Shown here one piece after another: positions 16,402-61,760 of a stretch of DNA of 64,000 bases. Below the pieces are notes generated by a model, which was given only the letters and a program-made list of their open reading frames with translations, ran no database searches and had not been told where the DNA came from. Both the position numbers and the translations under genes were made by a program. Numbering within the stretch: the stretch's first letter is position 1; every line of letters begins with the position of its first letter. The stretch covers positions 134,292,001-134,356,000 of the forward strand of contig OZ024745.1 of the NCBI GenBank assembly GCA_964016885.1, given 5' to 3'. The stretch is from Eledone cirrhosa (taxonomy: Eukaryota).

Positions 16402-18474
16402 ATGGACTACGTTCTTCCTTCAAGTTTTGATGCTATAGTTATTGGAACTGGTCTTTCAGAAAGTATCATTGCTTCTTCTTTGGCACGAATTGGCAAAACT
16501 GTTTTACACATAGATAGGAACGCCTATTACGGTAGCCGATGGGCATCGTTCAGCTTGCGTAACCTCCAAACCTGGGCGTCAACATTGAAAGAAAAGGAAC
16601 AGTTAAAATCACAAAATGCATCTTGTGACGCACCTGATTCTTCCGTTGACATCAACCCTCATCTTAAAGAAGGAGAATCGTTCGTGCTCGTCTCACCTTC
16701 TGATGAAGGCTTTTCTGATATCCAAATGTCCTACCATCACATCTCTACAAACACCATTGACGAATGTGATGAACCAAATGATACTACAGCTACTGTAATC
16801 AAAGCTGAAGAACTGCCGACAGAGCAGAGCCAGCCATCCTGCGACAGTCACGAAAAGCAATCAGGTGAGAAGGATGCGAAGAATATGGAGAATGAAGACA
16901 CCAGAGTAGTAGAAGAAACTGAAGACAAAGAAGAAACTGAGCAAATTAATTCTAATTCCGCTACGGAAGTCACTGCAGACAGTACAGAAGAACTTAAGGA
17001 AGTTGAAGTCTATATCACATCAGAAACGTTAGAAAACGAAGCCAGTAACAAAAATGCTATTGAAAAATGGACTATTAAAAGGTTGGAGGATCAATGGAGA
17101 CGTTTCAATTTTGATATAGCTCCCAAAGTATTATACAGTAATGGTGACATGGTAAATCTCTTGATCCAGTCTGATATTTCCCGCTATTGTGAATTTAAGC
17201 TTGTGTCGCGTATTTTAACTATTTTTCAGAATGAACTAAAAGCAGTTCCTTGTTCTCGAGCCCATGTTTTCAATTCCAAGGAAGTATCAATGCTAGAGAA
17301 AAGAATAATGATGAAGTTTATAAAGGCCTGCTCTGAAAATAGTCCTGATGAAACAATGAAAGAGTTTTATGATCGCCCTTTTTCTGAATATTTAGAAGAA
17401 AAGTTTCCTCCAATTGTAAAGCATTATATTTACCATGGAATTACAATGGCACAAAAATCAACCACAACTAAAGAAGGAATTTCTTTAGCTCAGAAATTTT
17501 TTTCATCAGTTGGACGGTATGGCGACATTCCTTTTATAACCCCTGTTTATGGTGTTGGAGAACTCCCACAGGCCTTTAGCCGTACGTGTGCTGTATGGGG
17601 TGGAATCTATTGTTTAAATTTATCAGCTAAAGCTATAATTATTTGTGAGGGGAAAGCAAAAGCTATTATCACAACTGATGCGAAACGAATTGAATTTGAA
17701 TGGCTTATACTAGAACCTAGCTACATTCCAAATGATATTATCGAGTCCATGGACAACCAAACAATCAACAGAGCTATACTGGTTACTGACCAAACTTTAC
17801 TGCAATCACCTAAAGAAGAACTATCACTTCTAAATATTTACCCAGCAGAGGACAGTTCAAGGCCCATAATCATGCACGAATACCCACCATCTTCTATGGT
17901 TTGCCCTGCTGGTTTATCTCTTGTCCACTTTACTAGGCAAGGCGAAGCTGACCCAAAAACTGAACTTGATTATGCTTGTAAATATTTATTCAATTTTGAA
18001 CCTATTGATGAAGATGAGAAAAATACAGATAGTGTTCCAGATGATTCCCAACAGAGCACTGACATACGACCGAATGTCTTATGGTCACTTTTATTCCAGG
18101 TAAAAAGCAAACGTAATGTGAAACTCCAGCAATCCCTACCCAATAATATTTTAGTGACCTCACAACCAGGATCTGAACTGGATTTGGATTTCTATCCAGG
18201 AGAAGCTAAGCGGATATTTGAGGCAATGTATCCTGAAGAAGAATTTCATCCAAAATGTCCCCATCCAGAAGATATTATTTATTGTGGTTCTGAAGAAGAC
18301 AAAGGCCCTGCTAGTGATAATGATGCTAGTAAAACTGAAAGTGATAGTAATATAACAGAGGAGACCACAGATTCTACCTGCCCCGATACAACAAGCAGTC
18401 CTACATTGCCTACTGAGAATTCAGATATCATTTACACAACTGAAAGTTTAACTAACATGAAATTGGAAAATTAA
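16402..18474 (+). CDS. CHM: Rab escort protein (Rab geranylgeranyltransferase component A, CHM/REP); single coding exon
   Basis: 690-aa ORF with GDI/REP motifs FDAIVIGTGLSESIIA, LHIDRNAYYGSRWASF, RRFNFDIAPK, SRYCEFK, VPCSRAHVF and YGVGELPQAFSRTCAVWGG; the long acidic insert after the N-terminal motif is REP-like rather than GDI-like. Confidence 0.93.
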   Translation: MDYVLPSSFDAIVIGTGLSESIIASSLARIGKTVLHIDRNAYYGSRWASFSLRNLQTWASTLKEKEQLKSQNASCDAPDSSVDINPHLKEGESFVLVSPSDEGFSDIQMSYHHISTNTIDECDEPNDTTATVIKAEELPTEQSQPSCDSHEKQSGEKDAKNMENEDTRVVEETEDKEETEQINSNSATEVTADSTEELKEVEVYITSETLENEASNKNAIEKWTIKRLEDQWRRFNFDIAPKVLYSNGDMVNLLIQSDISRYCEFKLVSRILTIFQNELKAVPCSRAHVFNSKEVSMLEKRIMMKFIKACSENSPDETMKEFYDRPFSEYLEEKFPPIVKHYIYHGITMAQKSTTTKEGISLAQKFFSSVGRYGDIPFITPVYGVGELPQAFSRTCAVWGGIYCLNLSAKAIIICEGKAKAIITTDAKRIEFEWLILEPSYIPNDIIESMDNQTINRAILVTDQTLLQSPKEELSLLNIYPAEDSSRPIIMHEYPPSSMVCPAGLSLVHFTRQGEADPKTELDYACKYLFNFEPIDEDEKNTDSVPDDSQQSTDIRPNVLWSLLFQVKSKRNVKLQQSLPNNILVTSQPGSELDLDFYPGEAKRIFEAMYPEEEFHPKCPHPEDIIYCGSEEDKGPASDNDASKTESDSNITEETTDSTCPDTTSSPTLPTENSDIIYTTESLTNMKLEN

Positions 18475-29835: not shown

Positions 29836-32238
29836 GAGGATGGAAGCCATGGAAGATGTTGGCTAAGGTGGTGGTAGGGAAGATGGCAGCCATGGAAGAT
29901 GTTGGCTAAGGTGGTGGTAGGGAGGATGGCAGCCATGGAAGATGTTGGCTAAGGTGGTGGTAGGGAGGATGGCAGCCATGGAAGATGTTGGCTAAGGTGG
30001 TGGTAGGGAGGATGGAAGCCATGGAAGATGTTGGCTAAGGTGGTGGTAGGGAAGATGGCAGCCATGGAAGATGTTGGCTAAGGTGGTGGTAGGGAGGATG
30101 GAAGCCATGGAAGATGTTGGCTAAGGTGGTGGTAGGGAAGATGGCAGCCATGGAAGATGTTGGCTAAGGTGGTGGTAGGGAGGATGGCAGCCATGGAAGA
30201 TGTTGGCTAAGGTGGTGGTAGGGAGGATGGCAGCCATGGAAGATGTTGGCTAAGGTGGTGGTAGGGAGGATGGAAGCCATGGAAGATGTTGGCTAAGGTG
30301 GTGGTAGGGAAGATGGCAGCCATGGAAGATGTTGGCTAAGGTGGTGGTAGGGAGGATGGAAGCCATGGAAGATGTTGGCTAAGGTGGTGGTAGGGAAGAT
30401 GGCAGCCATGGAAGATGTTGGCTAAGGTGGTGGTAGGGAAGATGGAAGCCATGGAAGATGTTGGCTAAGGTGGTGGTAGGGAAGATGGCAGCCATGGAAG
30501 ATGTTGGCTAAGGTGGTGGTAGGGAGGATGGAAGCCATGGAAGATGTTGGCTAAGGTGGTGGTAGGGAAGATGGCAGCCATGGAAGATGTTGGCTAAGGT
30601 GGTGGTAGGGAGGATGGAAGCCATGGAAGATGTTGGCTAAGGTGGTGGTAGGGAAGATGGCAGCCATGGAAGATGTTGGCTAAGGTGGTGGTAGGGAGGA
30701 TGGCAGCCATGGAAGATGTTGGCTAAGGTGGTGGTAGGGAGGATGGCAGCCATGGAAGATGTTGGCTAAGGTGGTGGTAGGGAGGATGGAAGCCATGGAA
30801 GATGTTGGCTAAGGTGGTGGTAGGGAAGATGGCAGCCATGGAAGATGTTGGCTAAGGTGGTGGTAGGGAGGATGGAAGCCATGGAAGATGTTGGCTAAGG
30901 TGGTGGTAGGGAAGATGGCAGCCATGGAAGATGTTGGCTAAGGTGGTGGTAGGGAAGATGGAAGCCATGGAAGATGTTGGCTAAGGTGGTGGTAGGGAAG
31001 ATGGCAGCCATGGAAGATGTTGGCTAAGGTGGTGGTAGGGAGGATGGCAGCCATGGAAGATGTTGGCTAAGGTGGTGGTAGGGAGGATGGAAGCCATGGA
31101 AGATGTTGGCTAAGGTGGTGGTAGGGAAGATGGCAGCCATGGAAGATGTTGGCTAAGGTGGTGGTAGGGAAGATGGAAGCCATGGAAGATGTTGGCTAAG
31201 GTGGTGGTAGGGAAGATGGAAGCCATGGAAGATGTTGGCTAAGGTGGTGGTAGGGAAGATGGCAGCCATGGAAGATGTTGGCTAAGGTGGTGGTAGGGAA
31301 GATGGCAGCCATGGAAGATGTTGGCTAAGGTGGTGGTAGGGAGGATGGAAGCCATGGAAGATGTTGGCTAAGGTGGTGGTAGGGAAGATGGCAGCCATGG
31401 AAGATGTTGGCTAAGGTGGTGGTAGGGAAGATGGAAGCCATGGAAGATGTTGGCTAAGGTGGTGGTAGGGAAGATGGCAGCCATGGAAGATGTTGGCTAA
31501 GGTGGTGGTAGGGAAGATGGCAGCCATGGAAGATGTTGGCTAAGGTGGTGGTAGGGAGGATGGAAGCCATGGAAGATGTTGGCTAAGGTGGTGGTAGGGA
31601 AGATGGCAGCCATGGAAGATGTTGGCTAAGGTGGTGGTAGGGAAGATGGCAGCCATGGAAGATGTTGGCTAAGGTGGTGGTAGGGAAGATGGAAGCCATG
31701 GAAGATGTTGGCTAAGGTGGTGGTAGGGAAGATGGAAGCCATGGAAGATGTTGGCTAAGGTGGTGGTAGGGAAGATGGCAGCCATGGAAGATGTTGGCTA
31801 AGGTGGTGGTAGGGAAGATGGCAGCCATGGAAGATGTTGGCTAAGGTGGTGGTAGGGAAGATGGCAGCCATGGAAGATGTTGGCTAAGGTGGTGGTAGGG
31901 AAGATGGCAGCCATGGAAGATGTTGGCTAAGGTGGTGGTAGGGAAGATGGAAGCCATGGAAGATGTTGGCTAAGGTGGTGGTAGGGAAGATGGAAGCCAT
32001 GGAAGATGTTGGCTAAGGTGGTGGTAGGGAAGATGGAAGCCATGGAAGATGTTGGCTAAGGTGGTGGTAGGGAGGATGGCAGCCATGGAAGATGTTGGCT
32101 AAGGTGGTGGTAGGGAAGATGGAAGCCATGGAAGATGTTGGCTAAGGTGGTGGTAGGGAAGATGGCAGCCATGGAAGATGTTGGCTAAGGTGGTGGTAGG
32201 GAAGATGGAAGCCATGGAAGATGTTGGCTAAGGTGGTG
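29836..32238. repeat. 43-bp minisatellite, ~56 copies
   Basis: Unit ggaagatgttggctaaggtggtggtaggga(a/g)gatgg(c/a)agccat. Confidence 0.97.
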
Positions 32239-35334: not shown

Positions 35335-35984
35335 CTAATAATAATTATTATTATTATATATATATTTTTCATATCATCATTGCCATCATTGTTTTTACAT
35401 CCGTTTTTTCATGCTTACATGGATTGGACATGTGTGTGTGTATATATACATATATATATGCTAAGTGTGTAGGAAAGGAGTAGGTAGAAATTCCATTCTA
35501 TGCCCTAAATACAAACTATGGGTACATAAAAGATGTAGTGGGATCACAGGCAAGGTATCTAAGAATGTAGATTTTATATGATTTTATATGTGGCTGATGC
35601 TCAGGTGCAGTAAGTAGCAAGTGCCCACTGGATACTAGCTCTTTCAACTGCCCAGAGGGTTCTATAGAAATAGTGGACACTTTCCGTTACCTTGGTGACA
35701 AAATCAGCAGTGAAAGTACCGTTCTAACTCTGGTTACTGATTCCTCGATGTCACGTGATTGATTCTTTTGAATTTGCCACCAACGCAGTAGGCAGTGATT
35801 TTTTCAATGGCTTGGAACTTAGTCCACGCTTTGCTTTTTTCCATCCACTGAATTATTTTTGTATAAGTTCCCTGTGTCCACGTATTGCCTGGAAACTTAG
35901 CTGAGAATAGACTTCCCTGATGACGAAAGGCTTCTCCGTACGTTTCTTCGGAAACTATGTTTAATTAATAAGTGGAGGGGAACG

Positions 35985-35987
35985 ATT

Positions 35988-36018
<31 letters not shown>

Positions 36019-36390
36019 AATTATTGTGTACAGTGCTCAGGTGCATGTATAATACATAGAATAATATACAAATGTCAGGGAAGTGAATAGTGTATGAGTC
36101 ATGATATACATGTGTGTATGTGTATGGAGGGGGAATATTAGGTGTAGTGTTGGCGAATCTCAGTAAGCATGGAGGTTTTAAAAGATGCAGTGTTTCGACA
36201 GCTAACAACTGATGCAGGGAGTTTGTTCCATGCTTCAGCAACTCTGAGCGTGAAAAAATGTCATGGGAGCTGTGCTGTTTTCTGACTTTGTAGGCATCCT
36301 CATGTGTGTTAGACACATGGAAATCAAAAAGGTACTCAGGGTTGTTGTTCGCAAGATGGTTATTTGAGACCCAAGAGTTTGTAGTCACTT
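35985..36390 (-). mobile_element. CR1/L2-like LINE 3' fragment with (ATT)n tail
   Basis: An alternate frame reads RVAEAWNKLPASVVSCRNTASFK, the typical CR1 ORF2 C-terminal R....WN.LP motif. Confidence 0.72.
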
Positions 36391-36934
36391 GATAGCTACC
36401 TAAAGTCCCTAAAAATTACAACTATTTTCCATTTACTGCTGGATGATGAAGTCTCAGCACTGGTCTACTTTCATGCTGGAGGTTGGATAAGGTGCACCTA
36501 GTTGGGTGATTACGCCTGGCAATTAGAACCTAGACAGAAATGAACTCACACTGGTTAATTGGAGTAGATACTACAAGGCATCTCATACAATGATTTGACA
36601 AGTTTGTCAAACCATTACCCTAGATTAGTACTTAATTTATTTACTCACTCTAAAAGAATTAAAGCAAAGTCATCCTTGGCAGAATTTTAACTCTGAGTAC
36701 AGAGAGCCAGAACAAATACTGCAGAAGATTCTATCCAAAACTCTAAAGCTCTGCCAATTCATATCCTAATTCAATATGACACATTGGATAATATAGTCAA
36801 GAAAAAATAACAGAATTGTAACAGCTGAAAAGCATTTGATCAAATATCTGTTTGTTGAGATATGACCTTGGGATAAATAACTATTTCTTATATATTACAT
36901 ATAAACCATAAACCATATACAAGTCCCTCCTTAC

Positions 36935-37004
36935 CTGTCAGACCTTGTAGATACTTCAGGATAATGAACTGAGCCAATTCCTCCAAAATCGTCAGTAATA
37001 TCAT
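36935..37004 (-). CDS. IDUA: IDUA exon 9
   Basis: DITDDFGGIGSVHYPEVSTRSD; polypyrimidine-ccag acceptor and GTAAG donor; phases 1/2 fit both neighbours. Confidence 0.82.
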
Positions 37005-37101
37005 CTGGAAAAAAACTTGTGTATATAATATATATATATAGATATATATGAGAGACGTAAAATAAGAAAATTATAAAAATTAACTTACTTACTAAAATTT
37101 C

Positions 37102-37184
37102 ACTCCAACTAATTAGTTTCTGAAAGGGAATAAACATAGTTTCCGAAGAAACGTACGGAGAAGCCTTTCGTCATCAGGGAAGTC
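37102..37184 (-). ncRNA. Putative type I hammerhead ribozyme, IDUA-sense copy
   Basis: Reverse complement of the 38041-38123 motif. Confidence 0.6.
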
Positions 37185-38040
37185 TATTCTCAGCTAAGTT
37201 TCCAGGCAATACGTGGACACAGGGAACTTATACAAAAATAATTCAGTGGATGGAAAAAAGCAAAGCGTGGACTAAGTTCCAAGCCATTGAAAAAATCACT
37301 GACTACTGCGTCGGTGGCAAATTCAAAAGAATCAATCACGTGACATCGAGGTCAATCAGTGAAGAGTGGTTTGTTAAGAAGATAGCAGCCGGACTGTTAC
37401 TATGAACTATAGTAGCAGTTTTGGCCAATTTTGGCTCAACAAAATAATTTGGAGATAATTATAAAGAATTAGTATATCTACTAACATATATATACAGATG
37501 CATACCTATGCCAGCAAATATGTAGGTTTTGTCTTAGTAACTTTTGTCTTAGAAACTATGTTTATTCCCTTTCAGAAACTAATTAGTTGGAGTGAAATTT
37601 TAGTAAGTAAGTTAATTTTTATAATTTTCTTATTTTACGTCTCTCATATTATTGTTCTGCATCCCCATGCATTGAACCACAAAGTTACTAAGACAAAACC
37701 TATATATTTGCTGGCATAGGTATGCATCTGTATATATATGTTAGTAGATATACTAATTCTTTATAATTATCTCCAAATTATTTTGTTGAGCCAAAATTGG
37801 CCAAAACTGCTACTATAGTTCATAGTAACAGTCCGGCTGCTATCTTCTTAACAAACCACTCTTCACTGATTGACCTCGATGTCACGTGATTGATTCTTTT
37901 GAATTTGCCACCAACGCAGTAGGCAGTGATTTTTTCAATGGCTTGGAACTTAGTCCACGCTTTGCTTTTTTCCATCCACTGAATTATTTTTGTATAAGTT
38001 CCCTGTGTCCACGTATTGCCTGGAAACTTAGCTGAGAATA

Positions 38041-38123
38041 GACTTCCCTGATGACGAAAGGCTTCTCCGTACGTTTCTTCGGAAACTATGTTTATTCCCT
38101 TTCAGAAACTAATTAGTTGGAGT
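38041..38123 (+). ncRNA. Putative type I hammerhead ribozyme
   Basis: gacuucc-CUGAUGA-cgaaagg...ccuuuca-GAAA-cuaauuag-UU-ggagu: catalytic boxes, stem II gaaagg/ccuuuc, palindromic stem III, GUU triplet, short stem I. Confidence 0.62.
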
Positions 38124-38577
38124 GAAATTTTAGTAAGTAAGTTAATTTTTATAATTTTCTTATTTTACGTCTCTCATATTATTGTTCTGCATCCCCATGC
38201 ATTGAACCACAAAGTTACTAAGACAAAACCTATATATTTGCTGGCATAGGTATGCATCTGTATATATATGTTAGTAGATATACTAATTCTTTATATAGAT
38301 ATATATATATATTTTTATTTATATATATATATATTAAAATAACAGATTCAAGTTTAAGCAAAGAATCGCTGCTTTCACCCTTAATGGGATCTTCTGAGTT
38401 TCAGAAGATCCCGTTAAGGGTGAAAGCAGCGATTCTTTGCTTAAACTTTAATCTGTTATTTTAATAAATATTTGCTCTAGGGTTCTTATACATTTGATAT
38501 ATATTTATCCTTATCGAACCCTCTTTGGATTTTAGTCTTCACATTTATCATTATTACTATATATATATATATATATA

Positions 38578-39410
38578 TTACCAAATACAAGTTCACATCA
38601 AATTTTGATTTACAAATATTTCATCATTAGGACTTTTCAAAATCAATCATTTTATGAACAATTACCTCAGCACGTTCATCTTTTCGAATGCACCAAAAAA
38701 TCACGGTGAATCTTTATTTACATATATATGAACATATATACTTTGATTAGAAGGCCTTTTTGTGAGTGTGTGCCCAGGAGTATGTAGTGTGGGAGTGACT
38801 GTGTACATGGGTGCACGCATCTTGGGAAAAAAAATCCTTTTTGGTATGTATAATGAATATGTTATATTGAGAAAAGTAGATTGCCTTTGGTTACTAGAAT
38901 GCTGGAGTGAAAGAATGTCATGCTATAGTACTCTTTGGTTACTAGAATGCTGGAGTGAAAGAATGCCATGCTATAGTACTCTTTGGTTACTAGAATGCTG
39001 GAGTGAAAGAATGTCATGCTATAGTACTCTTTGGTTACTAGAATGCTGGAGTGGAAGAATGTCATGCTATAGTACTCTTTGGTTACTAGAATGCTGGAGT
39101 GAAAGAATGTCATGCTATAGTACTCTTTGGTTACTAGAATGCTGGAGTGAAAGAATGCCATGCTATAGTACTCTTTGGTTACTAGAATGCTGGAGTGAAA
39201 GAATGTCATACTGTAGTACTCAACTATTATCACTTAATGCTGAATATTGGCATTTTGTAAAATGTAAACAAAGATTCACCGTGATTTTTTGGTGCATTCG
39301 AAAAGATGAACGTGCTGAGGTAATTGTTCATAAAATGATTGATTTTGATAAGTTCTAATGAGGATGAAATATTTGTAAATCAAAATTTGATGTGAACTTG
39401 TATTTAGTAA
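38578..39410. mobile_element. Foldback/MITE-like element: ~145-bp inverted repeats around a 48-bp minisatellite
   Basis: 38578-38722 is the near reverse complement of 39263-39410; TA-flanked; seven 48-bp units at 38885-39220. Confidence 0.72.
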
Positions 39411-40054
39411 TATATTCTAATGCGTAATTATTTTAACAAAATAGGAATTTGTATACAAGCTTTTTGGAAAAAACTTTTTTAAAGAAGTATGATACGTAGC
39501 CTTATGTACAGTTTATTATAATAAATTACCATATTTTGAGCTAATATAACTTCTCCACCTACTTCTTTCCAGTTTTTATATTTGAAAACCAAGTTCTTTA
39601 TATGTATATATATATTGCAGAAGATATGTTGCTTATAAGTAGTTGTTATGTCATAACTTCTTGAGGTCAAGCTGGTCCAAGCGATCCAAAAGGACTTCAT
39701 GTCAGTAGTTTATCCCTGGAAGGTGTTGGTAATTAGGAGTAACGGAGTAATCATTTATCAAATAAGAGTAGTTAAGACAGGATTAAATCACCATAATTGT
39801 TTATTGCATGATATATATTTCTGTTACATGATTATGCATGTGACTTTATCAGATGCTTATGCAATCATATGTGAAATTATGCAATCATTGGGATATGCTG
39901 CTGGCCATATACAACTATCCTGTAGTGATGGCAACAAGTATATGAATCTCTATATTAGGTTCTAGTAGTATATGTATCCACCATCTGATTGGTTGAAATA
40001 ATGCAATAAACAATATAGTGAAATAATCCAGTCTTAACTACTATTATTTGATAA

Positions 40055-42489: not shown

Positions 42490-45400
42490 CATGATCATCA
42501 TCATCATCGTGTAACATCCATCTTCCACGCCAGCATGGGTTTGGACGGGAATTTTCCCACTTGAGGCAAGATTTGTTGTCCTGCTCGTATAGGACTGTCT
42601 GGCGGGTTTTCTACGGCTGGATGCCCTTCCTAACACCAACCACGTTAACAGTGTGGACTGGGAGGTTTTTACCGTGTTACCTACACGGCCACATTACAGC
42701 GTGGACTGTGTGTTTTTTTGTCGTGACACCTACACGCCCTCATTTGTTTTGGACTGGATGTTGTGGTACCAACAAAACTTTACATTGGAAGGGGCGGTGT
42801 AGATGTGGTGGGGGTAGTGGGGCCGGGGTGTATTTTGTTAGAGGTGCCTACTGACTGTAGGTTTTGCTTTGTACTTAGGCAAGGCGGGTCTTCTGTATTA
42901 CTGTGTATCGCCAAAGATCTCGGTCCAGTGACATTGTCTTGGAGAGGTGTAAGTGTGTGAGGCCGGAATTTAGCAAGTCGTCCCAGGTTTTTCTGGGTCT
43001 GCCTACTCTGTGGCTACCGTCTATTTTTATTGCCCTGCACTTTTTTATACAGCTGTCGTCTTTCATGCGCATCACGTGACCGTACCAACGTAGTCTTCTC
43101 TCGAGTAAACAGCATCTGATCCCTCTTATTCCTAATTTCTCCCTTAGTTCGTTTATGCTTTGCCGTTCATGTATATTACTATTACACATCCAGCAGAGCA
43201 TGCAAGCTTCGTTCCTCTCCAGTCTGCGTATATCCTCTGCACACAATGCCCAGATCTCACTGCCATGCAACATTGCTGTTCGTATGCAGGCATCATACAA
43301 CCTGCCTTTCATTTTTAGTGAGAACCCTTTAGCGGCCAATAGTGGTATAAGCTCTCTGAATTTTTTCCATCCCGTTCTGACACTAGCTAGTGTACTTTCG
43401 GAGCACCCTCCACCACTGCTGATTTTGTCACCCAGGTAAAGGAAGGTGTCCACTATTTCTATAGAACCATCTGTGCAATGGAATGAGCTAGTATTCTGTG
43501 GGGACTTGCTGCTACTTATTGCACCAGAGCACCGGCCACATATAAAATCTATATTCTTAGTTAGCTTACCTGTGATCCCACTACATCTTTTATGCACCCA
43601 TACTTTGCATTTGGGACATAAAATGGAGTTTCTGCCTACTCCTTTCCTACACACTGAGCATGGCCATTTCCCAGATGGGGCTGGTGCCCTATTTTCCTTC
43701 CTACAAACTAGAACTTTAGCCTTCGACAGGTTAATTTTAAGGCCTTTTGATTCTAGGCCATGCTTCCATATTTGGAATTTCTTCTCTAGTTCGGCCATTG
43801 ATTCAGCTATGAGCGTTAGATCATCTGCGTATAGGAGTTCCCATGGGCAGCCGGTCTTGAACTCCTCTGTTATAACCTGAAGGGCAATAATAAATAGGAG
43901 GGGGCTAAGGACGGAGCCCTGATGAACACCAACCTTTACGCTAAACTCTTCACTATCTTCGTTGTTAATTCTAACCTTGCTGACTGTTTCTTTATACATG
44001 GCTTGTATAGCTCTCACAAGTCATTCATCAACACCTAGTTTTCTAAGAGCCCACCAGATAATGGAGCAGGGGACTCTGTCAAAGGCTTTCTTCAAGTCAA
44101 CAAAAGCTAAGTATAGGGGTTTACTTTTAGCTAGGTACTTCTCCTGTAGTTGTCATACAATGAAAAGAGCGTCTGTGGTACTTTTACCTGACCCAAACCC
44201 GAACTGCATTTCATCTAGATCAATTCACTCTCTGATTAGTTGCGCTATTACTTTTTCTGTGACCTTCATGACCTGGTCGATTAATTTAATGCCTCTATAG
44301 TTACCCCTATCTAGGGCATCTCCTTTACCCTTGTAGCAGTTAATGATGATGCTGCTACGCCAGTCCTTGGGAACGACCCCATTCTGTATGACTTGGTTTA
44401 CTATCCGGGTGACCATAGTGTGTCCCACCGTTCCAGATGCTTTCAGCATTTCAGCAACTATTTCCGAAGGCCCAGCCGCCTTACCCGTCTTCATATCTTT
44501 GATTGCCTTACTTATTATACTACCTTCAACTAGCACTGCTGGTCCCTCTATTGGATCGATGTGGAGGAGACTGTCTTTCTCCCAATTATTCTCCTCATTT
44601 AGTAGCCTTTCGTAGTGACACTTCCAAGCTACCTTCTTATCAGCGTCAGTGATGGCAAGTACACCATCATCATTAAGGACACACTTCTCCCCGACAATAT
44701 CACTGTTTTCCTTGACGCATTGCCTAGCAATCCTGAACACCTCACGTTTTTGGTCCTCGCATTGTAGAACATGCTTGAACTTTCTTTCCTCTGCTTCCCT
44801 TCTTGCGAAGTATACTTGTCTCCTAGCTTCCCTCCTGGCCACTTGATAGTATTCTCTACTTCCCCCATCCTTTCCAAGCCTGCTTTTTGGCCTTAATTGA
44901 CTCCTCCACCTTACTGTTCCACCACCACGTTACTCTCCTCCTGCCTATAGGCCTGCTCCAGCCACAGACATCATCTGCCGCCTTCAGCAGGTTAGCTTTC
45001 AGGAATTCCCACTGTTCCTCTATATTGTACGACTAATTGCTCTTCCTTACTGTCAAAAGCATCAAGTAATATGCTTTTAAATTTATTACTGGCTGTGGGG
45101 TCCTTTAGCTTCCATATTTTTCTCCTGAGGATAGTCTTCCTCTGTTGTCGAGTACGTGTTGTCCTGACTATGCGGTCGCTGACTATGAGTATGTTGGGAG
45201 GTGCATTCTTCGTGGGGGAGGGATTTAGTGTTTACAACAGACACTCTATCACGACTTCTGGTAAGGATATAATCTATCTGACTGGCGTGTTCCCCTGATC
45301 TATAGGTGATCAAGTGATTGTCTCGTTTTTTGAAGTTAGTGTTACAGACAGTTAGGTTATTTGCGTCACAGAATTCCAGGATTCTGGAGCCTTCCTCATT

Positions 45401-46090
45401 TCTAGTACCAAACCCATAGCCTCCATGAATTCCATCATAGCCATCACAATGTTGTCCAACGTGACCATTTAGGTCGCCAGCAATAATTATGTAGTCACTG
45501 TTGGTTATTTGGGAGGTCGTGAGCATCAATATCTCATAGAATCTATCTTTTATAACGCCAGGCAGTCCGGATTGGGGTGCGTACGCAGATATTACTGTCA
45601 CAGTAGTTCTATTTTGGACAAGTCTTATTTTAATTATTCTGTCGTTCACTCTATTTACATCTATTATCTTATCTACCCATTTTTCTGCTAACATGATTCC
45701 TATCCCACCCAGCCCATTGTCATTTCCCACCCAGAAAAGCTTATAGCATCGTTTTTTACCCACAATGAATCTAGCAGACCCACCCCTCCACCTGGTCTCT
45801 TGGATACAGCAAACATCAACCTCCTTGCGTTCAAGCATTTCTACAACCTCGTTAGAGCGACCTTTTAAGGTGCCTACATTCATGGTACCAACTCTGAAGT
45901 TTTGGATTGCGTTTGGTGGGTGAGAACGGTGGGGCACAGGGAGGGGGCCGGGGTTGGGGTTATGTTGGCCATCCGCGGCCGAAACAAAGAGGAGGAGTCC
46001 TTGCCTTTTCGTTCGTCATCTGCACTGTAATTCAGTTGCCTCTGGAACTGATCTTGAGTAATGACTGAAAGATCTTGGGTAAAGTGCAAA
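42490..46090 (-). mobile_element. Near full-length RTE-clade LINE (APE endonuclease, RT, PHD finger), inactivated
   Basis: APE (VCCIQETRW, GDLNGHVG, SQIDYIL) at 45086..45937; RT (NYRGIKL, QFGF, GVHQGSVLSP, YADD) at 42875..44842 with in-frame TGA stops and frameshifts; 3' UTR ending in a (GAT)n tail near 42490-42508. The 5' end is approximate. Confidence 0.92.
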
Positions 46091-58868: not shown

Positions 58869-60720
58869 CACTGGTCTACAGGGTTTTTGGTGTTTAGGAA
58901 ATATATATCATTCCTATACAAAATCGCAAAATCAGTCTCCTGATTCCAAATATAACCTTCTGTTTGACCTATCAGATCTAGTTTTTAAGATATTGAACAT
59001 CCCTATAGTCACTATGTATGTGTGTACGTCCAGTACGCAGTGTTCGTAACCTTATTCTAATTCTAAGTTTTTTCTTTTTCCATACTTTTTAGATGTTGTG
59101 GTGAACCAAGCAATAGAAAATGAGCAAGATGTCCTCTTCAAGAAAGTGTTGTGTTAATTCTCCAAATGTGTTTTGTTGTTTGTAGAGAATACACATTACC
59201 TGAAAATCGAAAAAATATCACTGATTTTGTTGAAAGAGCATATATGGCATATTTTGGGGTCAAGCTGGGAGACCAAGATAAATATTGGGAACCGCATAGT
59301 GTCTGCAAACAATGTACAGAACATTTGTGACAATGGTCAAAAGGGACAAGGAAAATTATGAGGTTTGCTATACCAATGGTATGGCGGGAGCCCTATAATC
59401 ACGTGGACGACTACTATTTTTGTAACCTAAATCTGAAGGGTATTAACTGGAAAAATCGACAAACGCTTGTCTATCCCAATCTTGCCTCTGCTATTAGACC
59501 GGTTCCACACAGTGAAGAGCTTCCTGTTCCCGTCTTCAATGTCTTGCCTCAGATAACTTTACCCTCTACCAAAGAAGATGACACTAGAGATCAAGACTTT
59601 TCAGTTGAGACTTTACCTCAGCTATTCTCCCAGGTAGAGCTGACTAATCTAGTTCGTGACTTGAACCTCCCAAAAAATTCTGCAGAACTGTTGGCTTCCC
59701 GACTGAAAGAAAAGAATCTTCTAGAGAATGGTGTCCATATAACCTTCTATCGGAGTCGGCATGAAGAGTTCCTTTCCTTATTCACAAAAGAGGATGAGCT
59801 GGTTTACTGCAGAGATGTCAGTGGGCTTCTTAATAAACTTCGCTTTGAGGAATACAAACTAGAGGAATGGCGTCTTTTCATAGACAGCTCTAAGCATAGT
59901 TTAAAATGAGTATTGTTGCACAACGGAATTGTGTATGGCTCTGATCCACTCGGTCACTCAACAACACTGAAGGAAAAATATGAAGAAATTAAGTTGGTTT
60001 TAGAGAAGATACTGTATCATGATCATAAATGGGTCATCTGTGTTGACTTAAAGATGGTGAATTTTCTCAGGGGACAGCAATCTGGTTATACCAAACACTC
60101 AGTATTGGGACAGTAGAGATCGAGTAAACCACTATGTTAAGAAAGACAGGCCGCCTCAAACAAATATGGCTCCATGTAGAGCTGCCAATATATTGGAAGA
60201 ACCTTTAGTTGAGCGAGATAAGATCATTTTCCTCATTTGCACATCAAACTCGGATTGATCAAGCAATTCGTCAAAGCTCTTGACAAAAATGGGGAGTGCT
60301 TCAAGTATATCTGCAGTGTATTTCCAGACTTGACAATTGAAAAACGATTCCATCAGGACATCAAGGAGATGGAAACTCGGTACCAAGGACATTGGGACGT
60401 TGTGATGATGGCAGACTATTGCTGGTGTTTAAAACAAGATACTCCTGTTGCATTCACAGTGAACAAAGAAGCATAAATTTATTGCTTGAATTCTCTTCCA
60501 AAAATCTTTGCCAATGTGCATTTTCAATTTTCAATTTTTATTTGTACTTTGTTTTGTTTTGTGTTACGCTCTCTTTATTGATTCATATTATATGCACCTT
60601 GTATGAATAAAATACTGACTCTATCCAGTCTAGACCTGATAGAGAAAAACTGAAGTTATTTTTGAATTTAGTAGGCAAAATCACTTGAGAATTATCGTTG
60701 AAATATTCCAGGTACCAGAC
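58869..60720 (+). mobile_element. Degenerate Chapaev3-like (CMC) DNA transposon
   Basis: Broken transposase: CCVNSPNVFC, LGDQDK, FAIPMVWREPYNHVDDYYFC, LFIDSSK, ICVDLKMV, HIKLGLIKQFVKAL, RFHQDIKEMETRYQG; begins TTA|CACTG. Family assignment from recalled motifs. Confidence 0.65.
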
Positions 60721-61119: not shown

Positions 61120-61760
61120 ATAGCAAAATGTGATTAAAGTAGCTTATTTTTATTTTCCCTCTATCATTTTTCTGCAGTATCATTAAGTTTGGTAGAGCCT
61201 TACCCTTTAGCATTTACATTACTCTATATATACTATTGTATTTTCGTGGTAAAGGCTTTATCTCACATAATATTGAATTTATGACATTTCGATATCATTT
61301 ATGTTGTGAACAATACCTTAATATCAGTATGAGTGGCCAGTTACGACCAGTGTGAACAGAAAGAGGTGAGAGAATTCTGGCCGGATATGGCCGATTTAAA
61401 TTCTAAAGGGTTAATGTTTAAGGAAAAAACTGGTATAGTCTTAACATTGGGTGGGAAAAAGGCTGGGACATACATAATTATGTCTTTATTACAATAGTTC
61501 TAAAGCATTATTGTAATAGAGGGCTGCCTTGTTGAAGATTCTTTATTTGAAGTAAGGTTAGATATTTTTTCACTGATATCATTAATTGGTGCCTTACATT
61601 TTTTGGTGAGAGACAAGAGTTTTTGTTAATATATGCAAGTTTGTCATTTGGCTCATTGTATTGTTTGTATCGGTAGGTTTTTGTTATGGCTCACTCATGT
61701 ATAGCTTAGCCGACTTCCTTTGAGATTGTATCTCATGGGAAATTTCTTTAGTGTTTTAAT
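61120..61760 (-). mobile_element. Penelope-like element RT/linker remnant, split by a TTAA MITE
   Basis: Minus-strand remnants YKQYNEPNDKLAYINKNS, IFNKAALYYNNAL, F.PNVKT..FL and KIKISY resemble the PLE RT thumb/linker. Confidence 0.55.

Follow-up and report, generated by a model that had tools for sequence, protein, structure and literature searches.

The window, by which we mean the whole 64-kb stretch of DNA analysed here, contains two head-to-head arms of a 530-nt unit with a hammerhead ribozyme motif. This locus is likely a recent insertion of a multi-copy, non-coding unit that is a non-autonomous derivative of Penelope-like elements (PLEs), of the retrozyme type. We consider it highly probable that the element was mobilised by PLE machinery, with or without a hammerhead in use, while the fuller scheme, in which cleavage occurs and the templates are circular, would have about an even chance of being right. 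The original prediction of a young non-autonomous element with a Penelope-type, tandem-plus-inverted insertion was supported, and the two arms, the target-site duplication (TSD), the hammerhead motif and the family to which the unit belongs were observed here. The unit is 530 nt long and is numbered from 37552 (unit position 1). The following features were found at the locus.

37552..38295, plus strand: direct arm, 744 nt or 1.40 units (unit 1 to 530 and on to 214), from sequence comparison
37046..37544, minus strand: inverted arm, 499 nt (unit 130 to 530 and on to 98)
37527..37552, no strand: head-to-head junction with an 11-nt duplication (37527-37537 and 37542-37552), 1 nt in common with the direct arm
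37035..37049, no strand: left copy of the TSD, its last 4 nt overlapping the inverted arm
38292..38306, no strand: right copy of the TSD, its first 4 nt overlapping the direct arm
35736..35963, plus strand: third, partial copy (unit 314 to 530 and on to 13), 1.1 kb upstream and beside a presumed RTE-type LINE fragment

The direct arm bore out the claim of about 1.4 direct copies of the unit, and the two copies of its 214-nt repeated part were identical (530 + 214). The near-perfect inverted copy was likewise confirmed, with 3 mismatches over 499 sites relative to the direct arm, at unit positions 152, 362 and 372. Read in the ribozyme sense, the arms meet 5′ to 5′ and both 3′ ends point outwards into (TA)n, as had been claimed for the bounds of the repeat, at unit 98 in the inverted arm and unit 214 in the direct arm. 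The 11 nt repeated at the junction are inverted-arm sequence. The flanks have a 15-nt string in common, of which 4 nt overlap each arm, giving a TSD of 7-15 bp; because a single G anchors this match within the TA tract, the TSD is good but not decisive, that is, moderate evidence. The insertion signature of EN+ PLEs was found here: a partial tandem, an inverted 5′-truncated copy, a short TSD and an AT-rich target. A tail difference of 30-40 nt between the 3′ ends, which is described as optional, was not found, the ends lying 116 nt apart. The third copy was 100% identical to the direct arm over 221 nt, and its ribozyme is incomplete because the copy ends before the palindrome. The TSD, the junction duplication and the third copy were absent from the original prediction.

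The same TA tract contains other repeats. A near-perfect hairpin with 71-nt arms (96%) lies at 38327-38558, its right arm continuing to about 38558, and may be a MITE or another head-to-head insertion of PLE type. Its right arm includes a string resembling a hammerhead, in which U4 is replaced by A and a 3-bp helix II has an extra U on each side, which the descriptor written for the motif of the 37552 unit did not accept. An element at 38573-39415 starts in (TA)n and has 154-nt inverted ends (95%) around a 48-nt minisatellite in 7 copies.

The hammerhead motif of the unit and the monomer that it would delimit are made up as follows.

38027..38137, plus strand: complete type I hammerhead motif, predicted cut 38118/38119
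38048-38054, plus strand: core CUGAUGA, followed by an extra C at 38055
38056-38061 and 38098-38103, plus strand: helix II of 6 bp, opening with G10.1-C11.1, with an internal loop and a further hairpin inside it
38068-38090, plus strand: inner UUCG hairpin within helix II
38104, plus strand: extra A, followed by GAAA at 38105-38108
38107-38118, plus strand: palindromic helix III, perfect over 12 nt, with a GUU (NUH) cut site at 38118/38119
extendable to 38027 and 38137, plus strand: helix I
37088..37198, minus strand: complete motif of the inverted arm, core beginning at 37177, predicted cut 37107/37106, ends mapped from the direct arm
37552..37607, plus strand: 3′ half of a hammerhead, with the palindrome, a predicted cut at 37588/37589 and the 3′ strand of helix I; no CUGAUGA core
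37589..38118, plus strand: predicted 530-nt monomer between both cut sites, 35% GC, no recognised ORF

The direct arm thus has a single complete ribozyme and one half. As a motif the predicted hammerhead stood, since the CUGAUGA core, helix II, GAAA and the palindromic helix III were all found. Rfam gave no hammerhead match at the gathering score in the 64-kb window, and none of its 10 matches at E≤10 over 35500-38600 was a hammerhead. A motif descriptor, written post hoc after the motif had been seen, matched twice in the window, in both arms, with 0 matches in 2000 shuffles of the unit and 1 match in 30 shuffles of the window. In a descriptor scan the core at 38048 gave three registers. The best register had a constrained fold of −21.1 kcal/mol against a minimum free energy (MFE) of −25.0 kcal/mol, and the predicted active fold is not the most stable one. 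A register using the first GAAA, 38082-38085, gave −12.6 kcal/mol against −21.1 kcal/mol, and that GAAA is absent from a common subfamily; a register with a cut at 38080/38081 was rejected for want of a helix II. With these two registers rejected, a start of the array at a cut site falls too. That the array starts inside the ribozyme motif, as first proposed, was correct, the start being the tip of the inner helix-II hairpin. This point lies 36 nt upstream of the first predicted cut, so that we regard the start as a truncation and not as a cleavage end.

When compared with the minimal hammerheads of PLEs, the motif has CUGANGA plus one extra nucleotide (38048-38055), the G10.1-C11.1 pair and a palindromic helix III with an NUH site. 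GAAA does not directly follow helix II, A38104 intervening, and because of this one departure we did not class it as a consensus minimal hammerhead. The palindrome duplex was calculated at −13.0 kcal/mol. When the core of the direct arm was placed on the upstream half-site, with a helix III of 10 bp, the cost over the MFE was 5.1 kcal/mol; on its own site it was 11.2 kcal/mol. Minimal hammerheads have a helix I of 3-6 bp next to the core; here helix I could form 4 contiguous pairs, including one G-U, and an 11-pair extension, and its pairing probability was 0.00 in the modelled circle and 0.04 in a 211-nt context. Early folds of four short fragments without helix III gave z values from −0.95 to +0.91. 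The ribozyme is predicted to work as a dimer held together by the palindromic helix III, whereas in the circular monomer its active form would be folded away. A loose two-part pattern of the motif had 0 matches in viral contigs and 3 in metagenomes, which we attribute to chance because none of the 3 resembles the unit. The accessible part of PMC11300833 contains nothing on the C-A mismatch of helix II.

The unit showed no sign of coding. The longest stop-free stretch in its six frames was 93 aa, on the minus strand, with no match in Pfam, in the Atlas or among longer proteins, which are weak negatives. The RT and GIY-YIG ORF of an autonomous EN+ PLE was not found in the unit, and inside the 64-kb window the unit had no similarity to any autonomous PLE pLTR and no autonomous partner was found. 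A promoter scan of the unit was at chance level; its model is bacterial and does not apply to an octopod host. What we take to be CCAAT-box-like and E-box-like motifs lie at 37790-37890. In X1, one of the public sequencing runs, depth goes up roughly five-fold around 37856-37874, not far from the unit position at which the third copy starts. Donor-splice-like GTAAGT strings occur at 38138-38160, directly after helix I, and PLE repeats often have an intron near the ribozyme. The circular fold of the unit had a z of −3.2 against 40 shuffles, and the minus strand folded no worse than the plus strand (−116.0 against −113.2).

The unit or a part of it was present in 12 of the 16 public runs listed, from 8 studies, and 3 runs contained at least half of its words. 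No RNA run was listed among them, which carries no information on expression. Four of the 16 runs were compared, namely X1 and X14 (organism A), X4 (organism B) and X9 (organism F), with the small-share organisms C, D, E, G, H and I outside the comparison; X1 may be close to the source of the window and is then not independent for organism A. X1 had 3251 matching contigs, 794 of them at least 99% alike, 1087 at 95-99%, 981 at 90-95% and 389 lower, X4 had 65 contigs and X9 had 17. Among the raw reduced-representation reads of X14, 8242 of 12.5 million matched, 7450 of them partially. These counts suggest a copy number in the thousands, a rough figure that is subject to library bias and to an assumed genome size. 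The unit is therefore not unique to this locus but multi-copy in public runs of three labelled organisms. None of the outcomes that the original prediction had named as speaking against it, a unit found only here, an assembly artefact or a known DNA transposon with no hammerhead conservation, was obtained.

All 30 bins of the unit were covered in each of the four runs, and no piece among those listed spanned the entire unit. The link from unit 214 to unit 215 was found in organisms A (11 contigs), B (1 contig) and F (1 contig). Because all bins are covered and this link occurs in the three organisms, nowhere along the 530-nt ring does the sequence seem particular to this locus, and the unit appears to close on itself across the family. 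The head-to-tail unit that marks retrozymes was thus found to be common to a multi-copy family. Opposite-strand joints at other breakpoints, at least four among those listed (2 contigs and 6 reads, the reads being possible chimeras), suggest that inverted arms recur in the family. X14 read ends at 37905, 38114 and 38288 coincide with AATT, and for this reason they are probably library cut sites in DNA and not ribozyme cuts.

The listed loose ends of all four runs keep the core and then run into divergent helix-II sequences. One subfamily, judged by eye from loose ends, has another helix II and lacks the first GAAA, and its inner hairpin pairs with one U-A to A-U swap. The variant helix-II subfamily was represented by 15, 3 and 2 contigs in X1, X4 and X9 and by 800 X14 reads at 0.74 agreement. 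None of the 40 listed substitutions falls in 38048-38056 or 38100-38119, but the listing leaves out a further 155 variable sites, together with 10 indels and as many as 401 loose ends, so that constancy of the core is provisional. Among the listed changes, 38069 G>A and the loss of 38072 improve the inner hairpin; two others, 38086 C>A and 38090 G>A, would disrupt its pairing unless compensated, and 38099 C>A may belong to the variant helix II.

When polarised by a third copy, all three differences between the arms fall on the inverted arm (chance 1 in 27). The letter that makes up 98.5% of X1 depth at unit 362 is the one in the inverted arm, and the direct arm and the copy at 35736-35963 have the rare letter. 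The simplest reading is that two RNA molecules contributed to one insertion, and later mutation or editing is a possible alternative for these differences.

On this basis the following mechanism may be proposed. Cleavage by the hammerhead would turn tandem transcripts into monomers of 530 nt, which would become circles and be copied by a Penelope enzyme in trans. A GIY-YIG nuclease would cut both strands of the (TA)n tract 7-15 nt apart, and each free end would prime reverse transcription inside the RNA at a 4-nt TA match, which lies 177 nt downstream of the ribozyme site for one end and 61 nt for the other. One cDNA would run 1.4 units over two uncut sites and the other 499 nt on a second RNA molecule, and head-to-head joining of the two would leave a short duplication by slippage. 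As the 744-nt direct arm crosses two intact sites, its template would have been a circle or an uncut multimer. The two-strand cutting, extension and internal start seen with a purified PLE protein (PMC11167929) would account for two outward arms that end 61 nt and 177 nt beyond the cut site. In an extended form, which we think unlikely, the family would be an octopod-wide retrozyme family with abundant 530-nt circles and a new working variant of the hammerhead, whose long helix II is in two parts and closes over a C-A mismatch, and a dimeric enzyme would have copied two circles, one for 1.4 turns. The animal group is known for heavy editing. Given known editing preferences, A38104, which faces C in a helix and is followed by G, might be edited from A to I, a change that would mend the mismatch and activate the ribozyme, an idea to which we attach very little weight.

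The proposed cleavage and circles have to be weighed against a non-autonomous PLE derivative whose hammerhead is weak or unused and whose templates were uncut tandem transcripts from multimeric loci, with no circle involved. A multimer explains the uncut sites in both arms equally well. The extra A38104, the disfavoured active fold with helix I mostly unpaired in longer contexts and the one complete motif of the direct arm speak against cleavage, and two X1 contigs have 75-80 nt deleted across the core. Unprocessed RNA is used by the anole PLE (PMC11167929), 8 of 9 Xenopus dimers were without cleavage (10.64898/2026.07.22.740005) and PLE minimal hammerheads cleave poorly in vitro (PMC4209133). 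Yet the core and hairpin are kept across divergent subfamilies in three organisms, which argues for selection on RNA structure, and the 10-bp dimer helix III with a long helix I is better than most minimal motifs. We regard copying from uncut transcripts as a serious but somewhat doubtful possibility.

Most PLE insertions are truncated, and X1 depth is far lower at 37766-37855 than at 38090-38290, with the many loose ends beyond those listed; the arms could thus be 5′-truncated pLTR pieces of a long autonomous PLE, the tandem having arisen at this insertion. In that case the head-to-tail junction should be specific to the locus. The 214/215 link is, however, common to both arms and to organisms A, B and F, the contigs cover the entire unit, and the unit has no coding remnant, which makes truncated pLTRs very unlikely. 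Still less probable, and in our estimate scarcely credible, is a DNA-level repeat (MITE, fold-back or satellite) or an assembly artefact with a hammerhead-like string by chance. The other hairpin and terminal-inverted-repeat elements of the TA tract would suit such a repeat, as would the chance metagenome matches of the loose pattern. Against it, the arms end at different unit positions, a TSD flanks them, one of the three sites at which they differ carries a family allele, the family is present in the raw reads of X14, and the descriptor found nothing in the unit shuffles.

Other features of the window bear on the host and on its transposable elements. An intronless ORF at 16402-18474 encodes a 690-aa Rab escort protein (REP1/CHM-like), which is closest to proteins of Octopus sinensis (75%), O. 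bimaculoides (71%) and Argonauta (67%); for other molluscs the figure stays under 45%. These relatives agree with the cephalopod host that had been predicted and narrow it to an octopod distinct from these three. A broken LINE, presumably of RTE type, lies at 42875-46015 on the minus strand in three ORF pieces (endonuclease, RT and a PHD-like finger), and LINE fragments occur elsewhere too, including 35458-35712 beside the third unit copy. A broken ORF in three pieces at 59331-60476 on the plus strand had no Pfam match at a useful level and is presumably transposase-like. A 43-nt unit is repeated 56 times at 29839-32238 (97% matches), and the window has many further minisatellites of 24-57 nt.

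A PLE RT remnant had also been predicted, at the following position.

61120..61760, minus strand: frameshifted remnant resembling the thumb region of Hydra-clade PLEs, interrupted by a short repeat near 61202-61427

Its four short stretches, in three frames, follow the order of the Hydra-clade thumb region (PMC8557442 supplement), a likeness judged by eye with no statistic. Database support did not follow: there was no match in Pfam (3 frames, 4 pieces), none in the Atlas at ≥0.9 and none among longer proteins, and 3 other matches were spurious repeat proteins. The remnant has no sequence similarity to the unit that would link the two.

Among known systems the layout of the locus is closest to that of EN+ PLEs (PMC3846280, PMC8557442, PMC11167929), which likewise have a partial tandem and an inverted 5′-truncated copy, a short TSD and an AT-rich target. 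In Adineta, Pen2a has a pair of direct pLTRs plus an inverted one, with a 9-bp TSD and a 15-bp overlap at the inverted junction, and trans-mobilisation by pLTRs is described (PMC3846280). Octopus PLEs of the Hydra and Naiad clades target (TA)n (PMC8557442 supplement). A purified PLE protein, a predicted dimer, was found to cleave AT-rich DNA on both strands and to extend the two of them, with initiation internal to the RNA at a point downstream of the hammerhead (PMC11167929); the 3′ ends of the locus likewise lie downstream of it. In contrast to EN+ PLEs the unit is without an RT/GIY-YIG ORF, and its 3′ ends are 116 nt apart instead of the usual 30-40 nt tail. Each end of the locus matches the target over 4 nt, in contrast to the anole enzyme, which primes without target homology; in the anole system no reads began or ended at the cut, cleavage by the hammerhead needed protein, and the hammerhead was dispensable for insertion (PMC11167929).

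Animal PLE hammerheads are described with CUGANGAH, G10.1-C11.1, a palindromic helix III and an NUH site, and dimers via helix III were proposed (PMC4209133). The unit resembles them in CUGANGA plus one nucleotide, G10.1-C11.1 and U at position 17, and its palindromic helix III of 10 nt equals the Aedes rows in length. An extra A before GAAA occurs in 1 of about 56 rows of that paper, probably the Cotesia row by column count in the PDF. The helix II of the unit closes 36 nt (internal loop and hairpin) as against loops of 3-9 nt in those rows. Hydra-1_Obim, a PLE of Octopus bimaculoides, likewise has a hammerhead, a (TA)n target, a short palindromic helix III and U at the cut, but its listed hammerhead differs in sequence from that of the unit, and its helix II is short (PMC8557442 supplement). 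Two short motifs of the unit were not found in the accessible part of this supplement. The giant squid annotation has 235 Rfam hammerhead loci together with Penelope repeats (PMC6962438).

Non-LTR retrozymes are described as a source of circles in animals, namely coral, mussel and axolotl (PMC7229834), and are argued to be non-autonomous PLE derivatives of 51-972 bp (10.64898/2026.07.22.740005, 2026 preprint), a range that includes 530 nt; no mollusc was sampled in the accessible part of the preprint. They are likewise non-coding, low in GC and head-to-tail, with a type I hammerhead and PLEs in the same host group. The 530-nt unit is longer than the units of about 220-400 nt in coral, mussel and axolotl. 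Unlike retrozymes, the locus has a PLE-type inverted arm and a TSD and only 1.4 units, and circles here are predicted. Of nine Xenopus dimers, one was cleaved in vitro (10.64898/2026.07.22.740005). The retrozyme label first given to the unit holds for its short, low-GC, non-coding sequence and family-wide head-to-tail order. It does not extend to an 'active retrozyme' with two complete motifs (Li et al. 2026 preprint), because the direct arm has one complete ribozyme.

No description of this family was found in the searchable literature, and Repbase, Dfam and subscription papers, outside this scope, may carry it under a neutral name. The hosts described in the accessible parts of PMC7229834 and 10.64898/2026.07.22.740005 include no cephalopods. 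The element class and the insertion layout are already described, and retrozyme-like elements are newly extended to octopods, with a hammerhead form that Rfam missed. For this reason the gain is a good test case and not a new system. A young, small, multi-copy family with readable TSDs, variable 3′ ends and allele-marked arms makes it possible to test, by counting loci, whether Penelope-type elements copy circles or uncut multimers and how their inverted arms originate.
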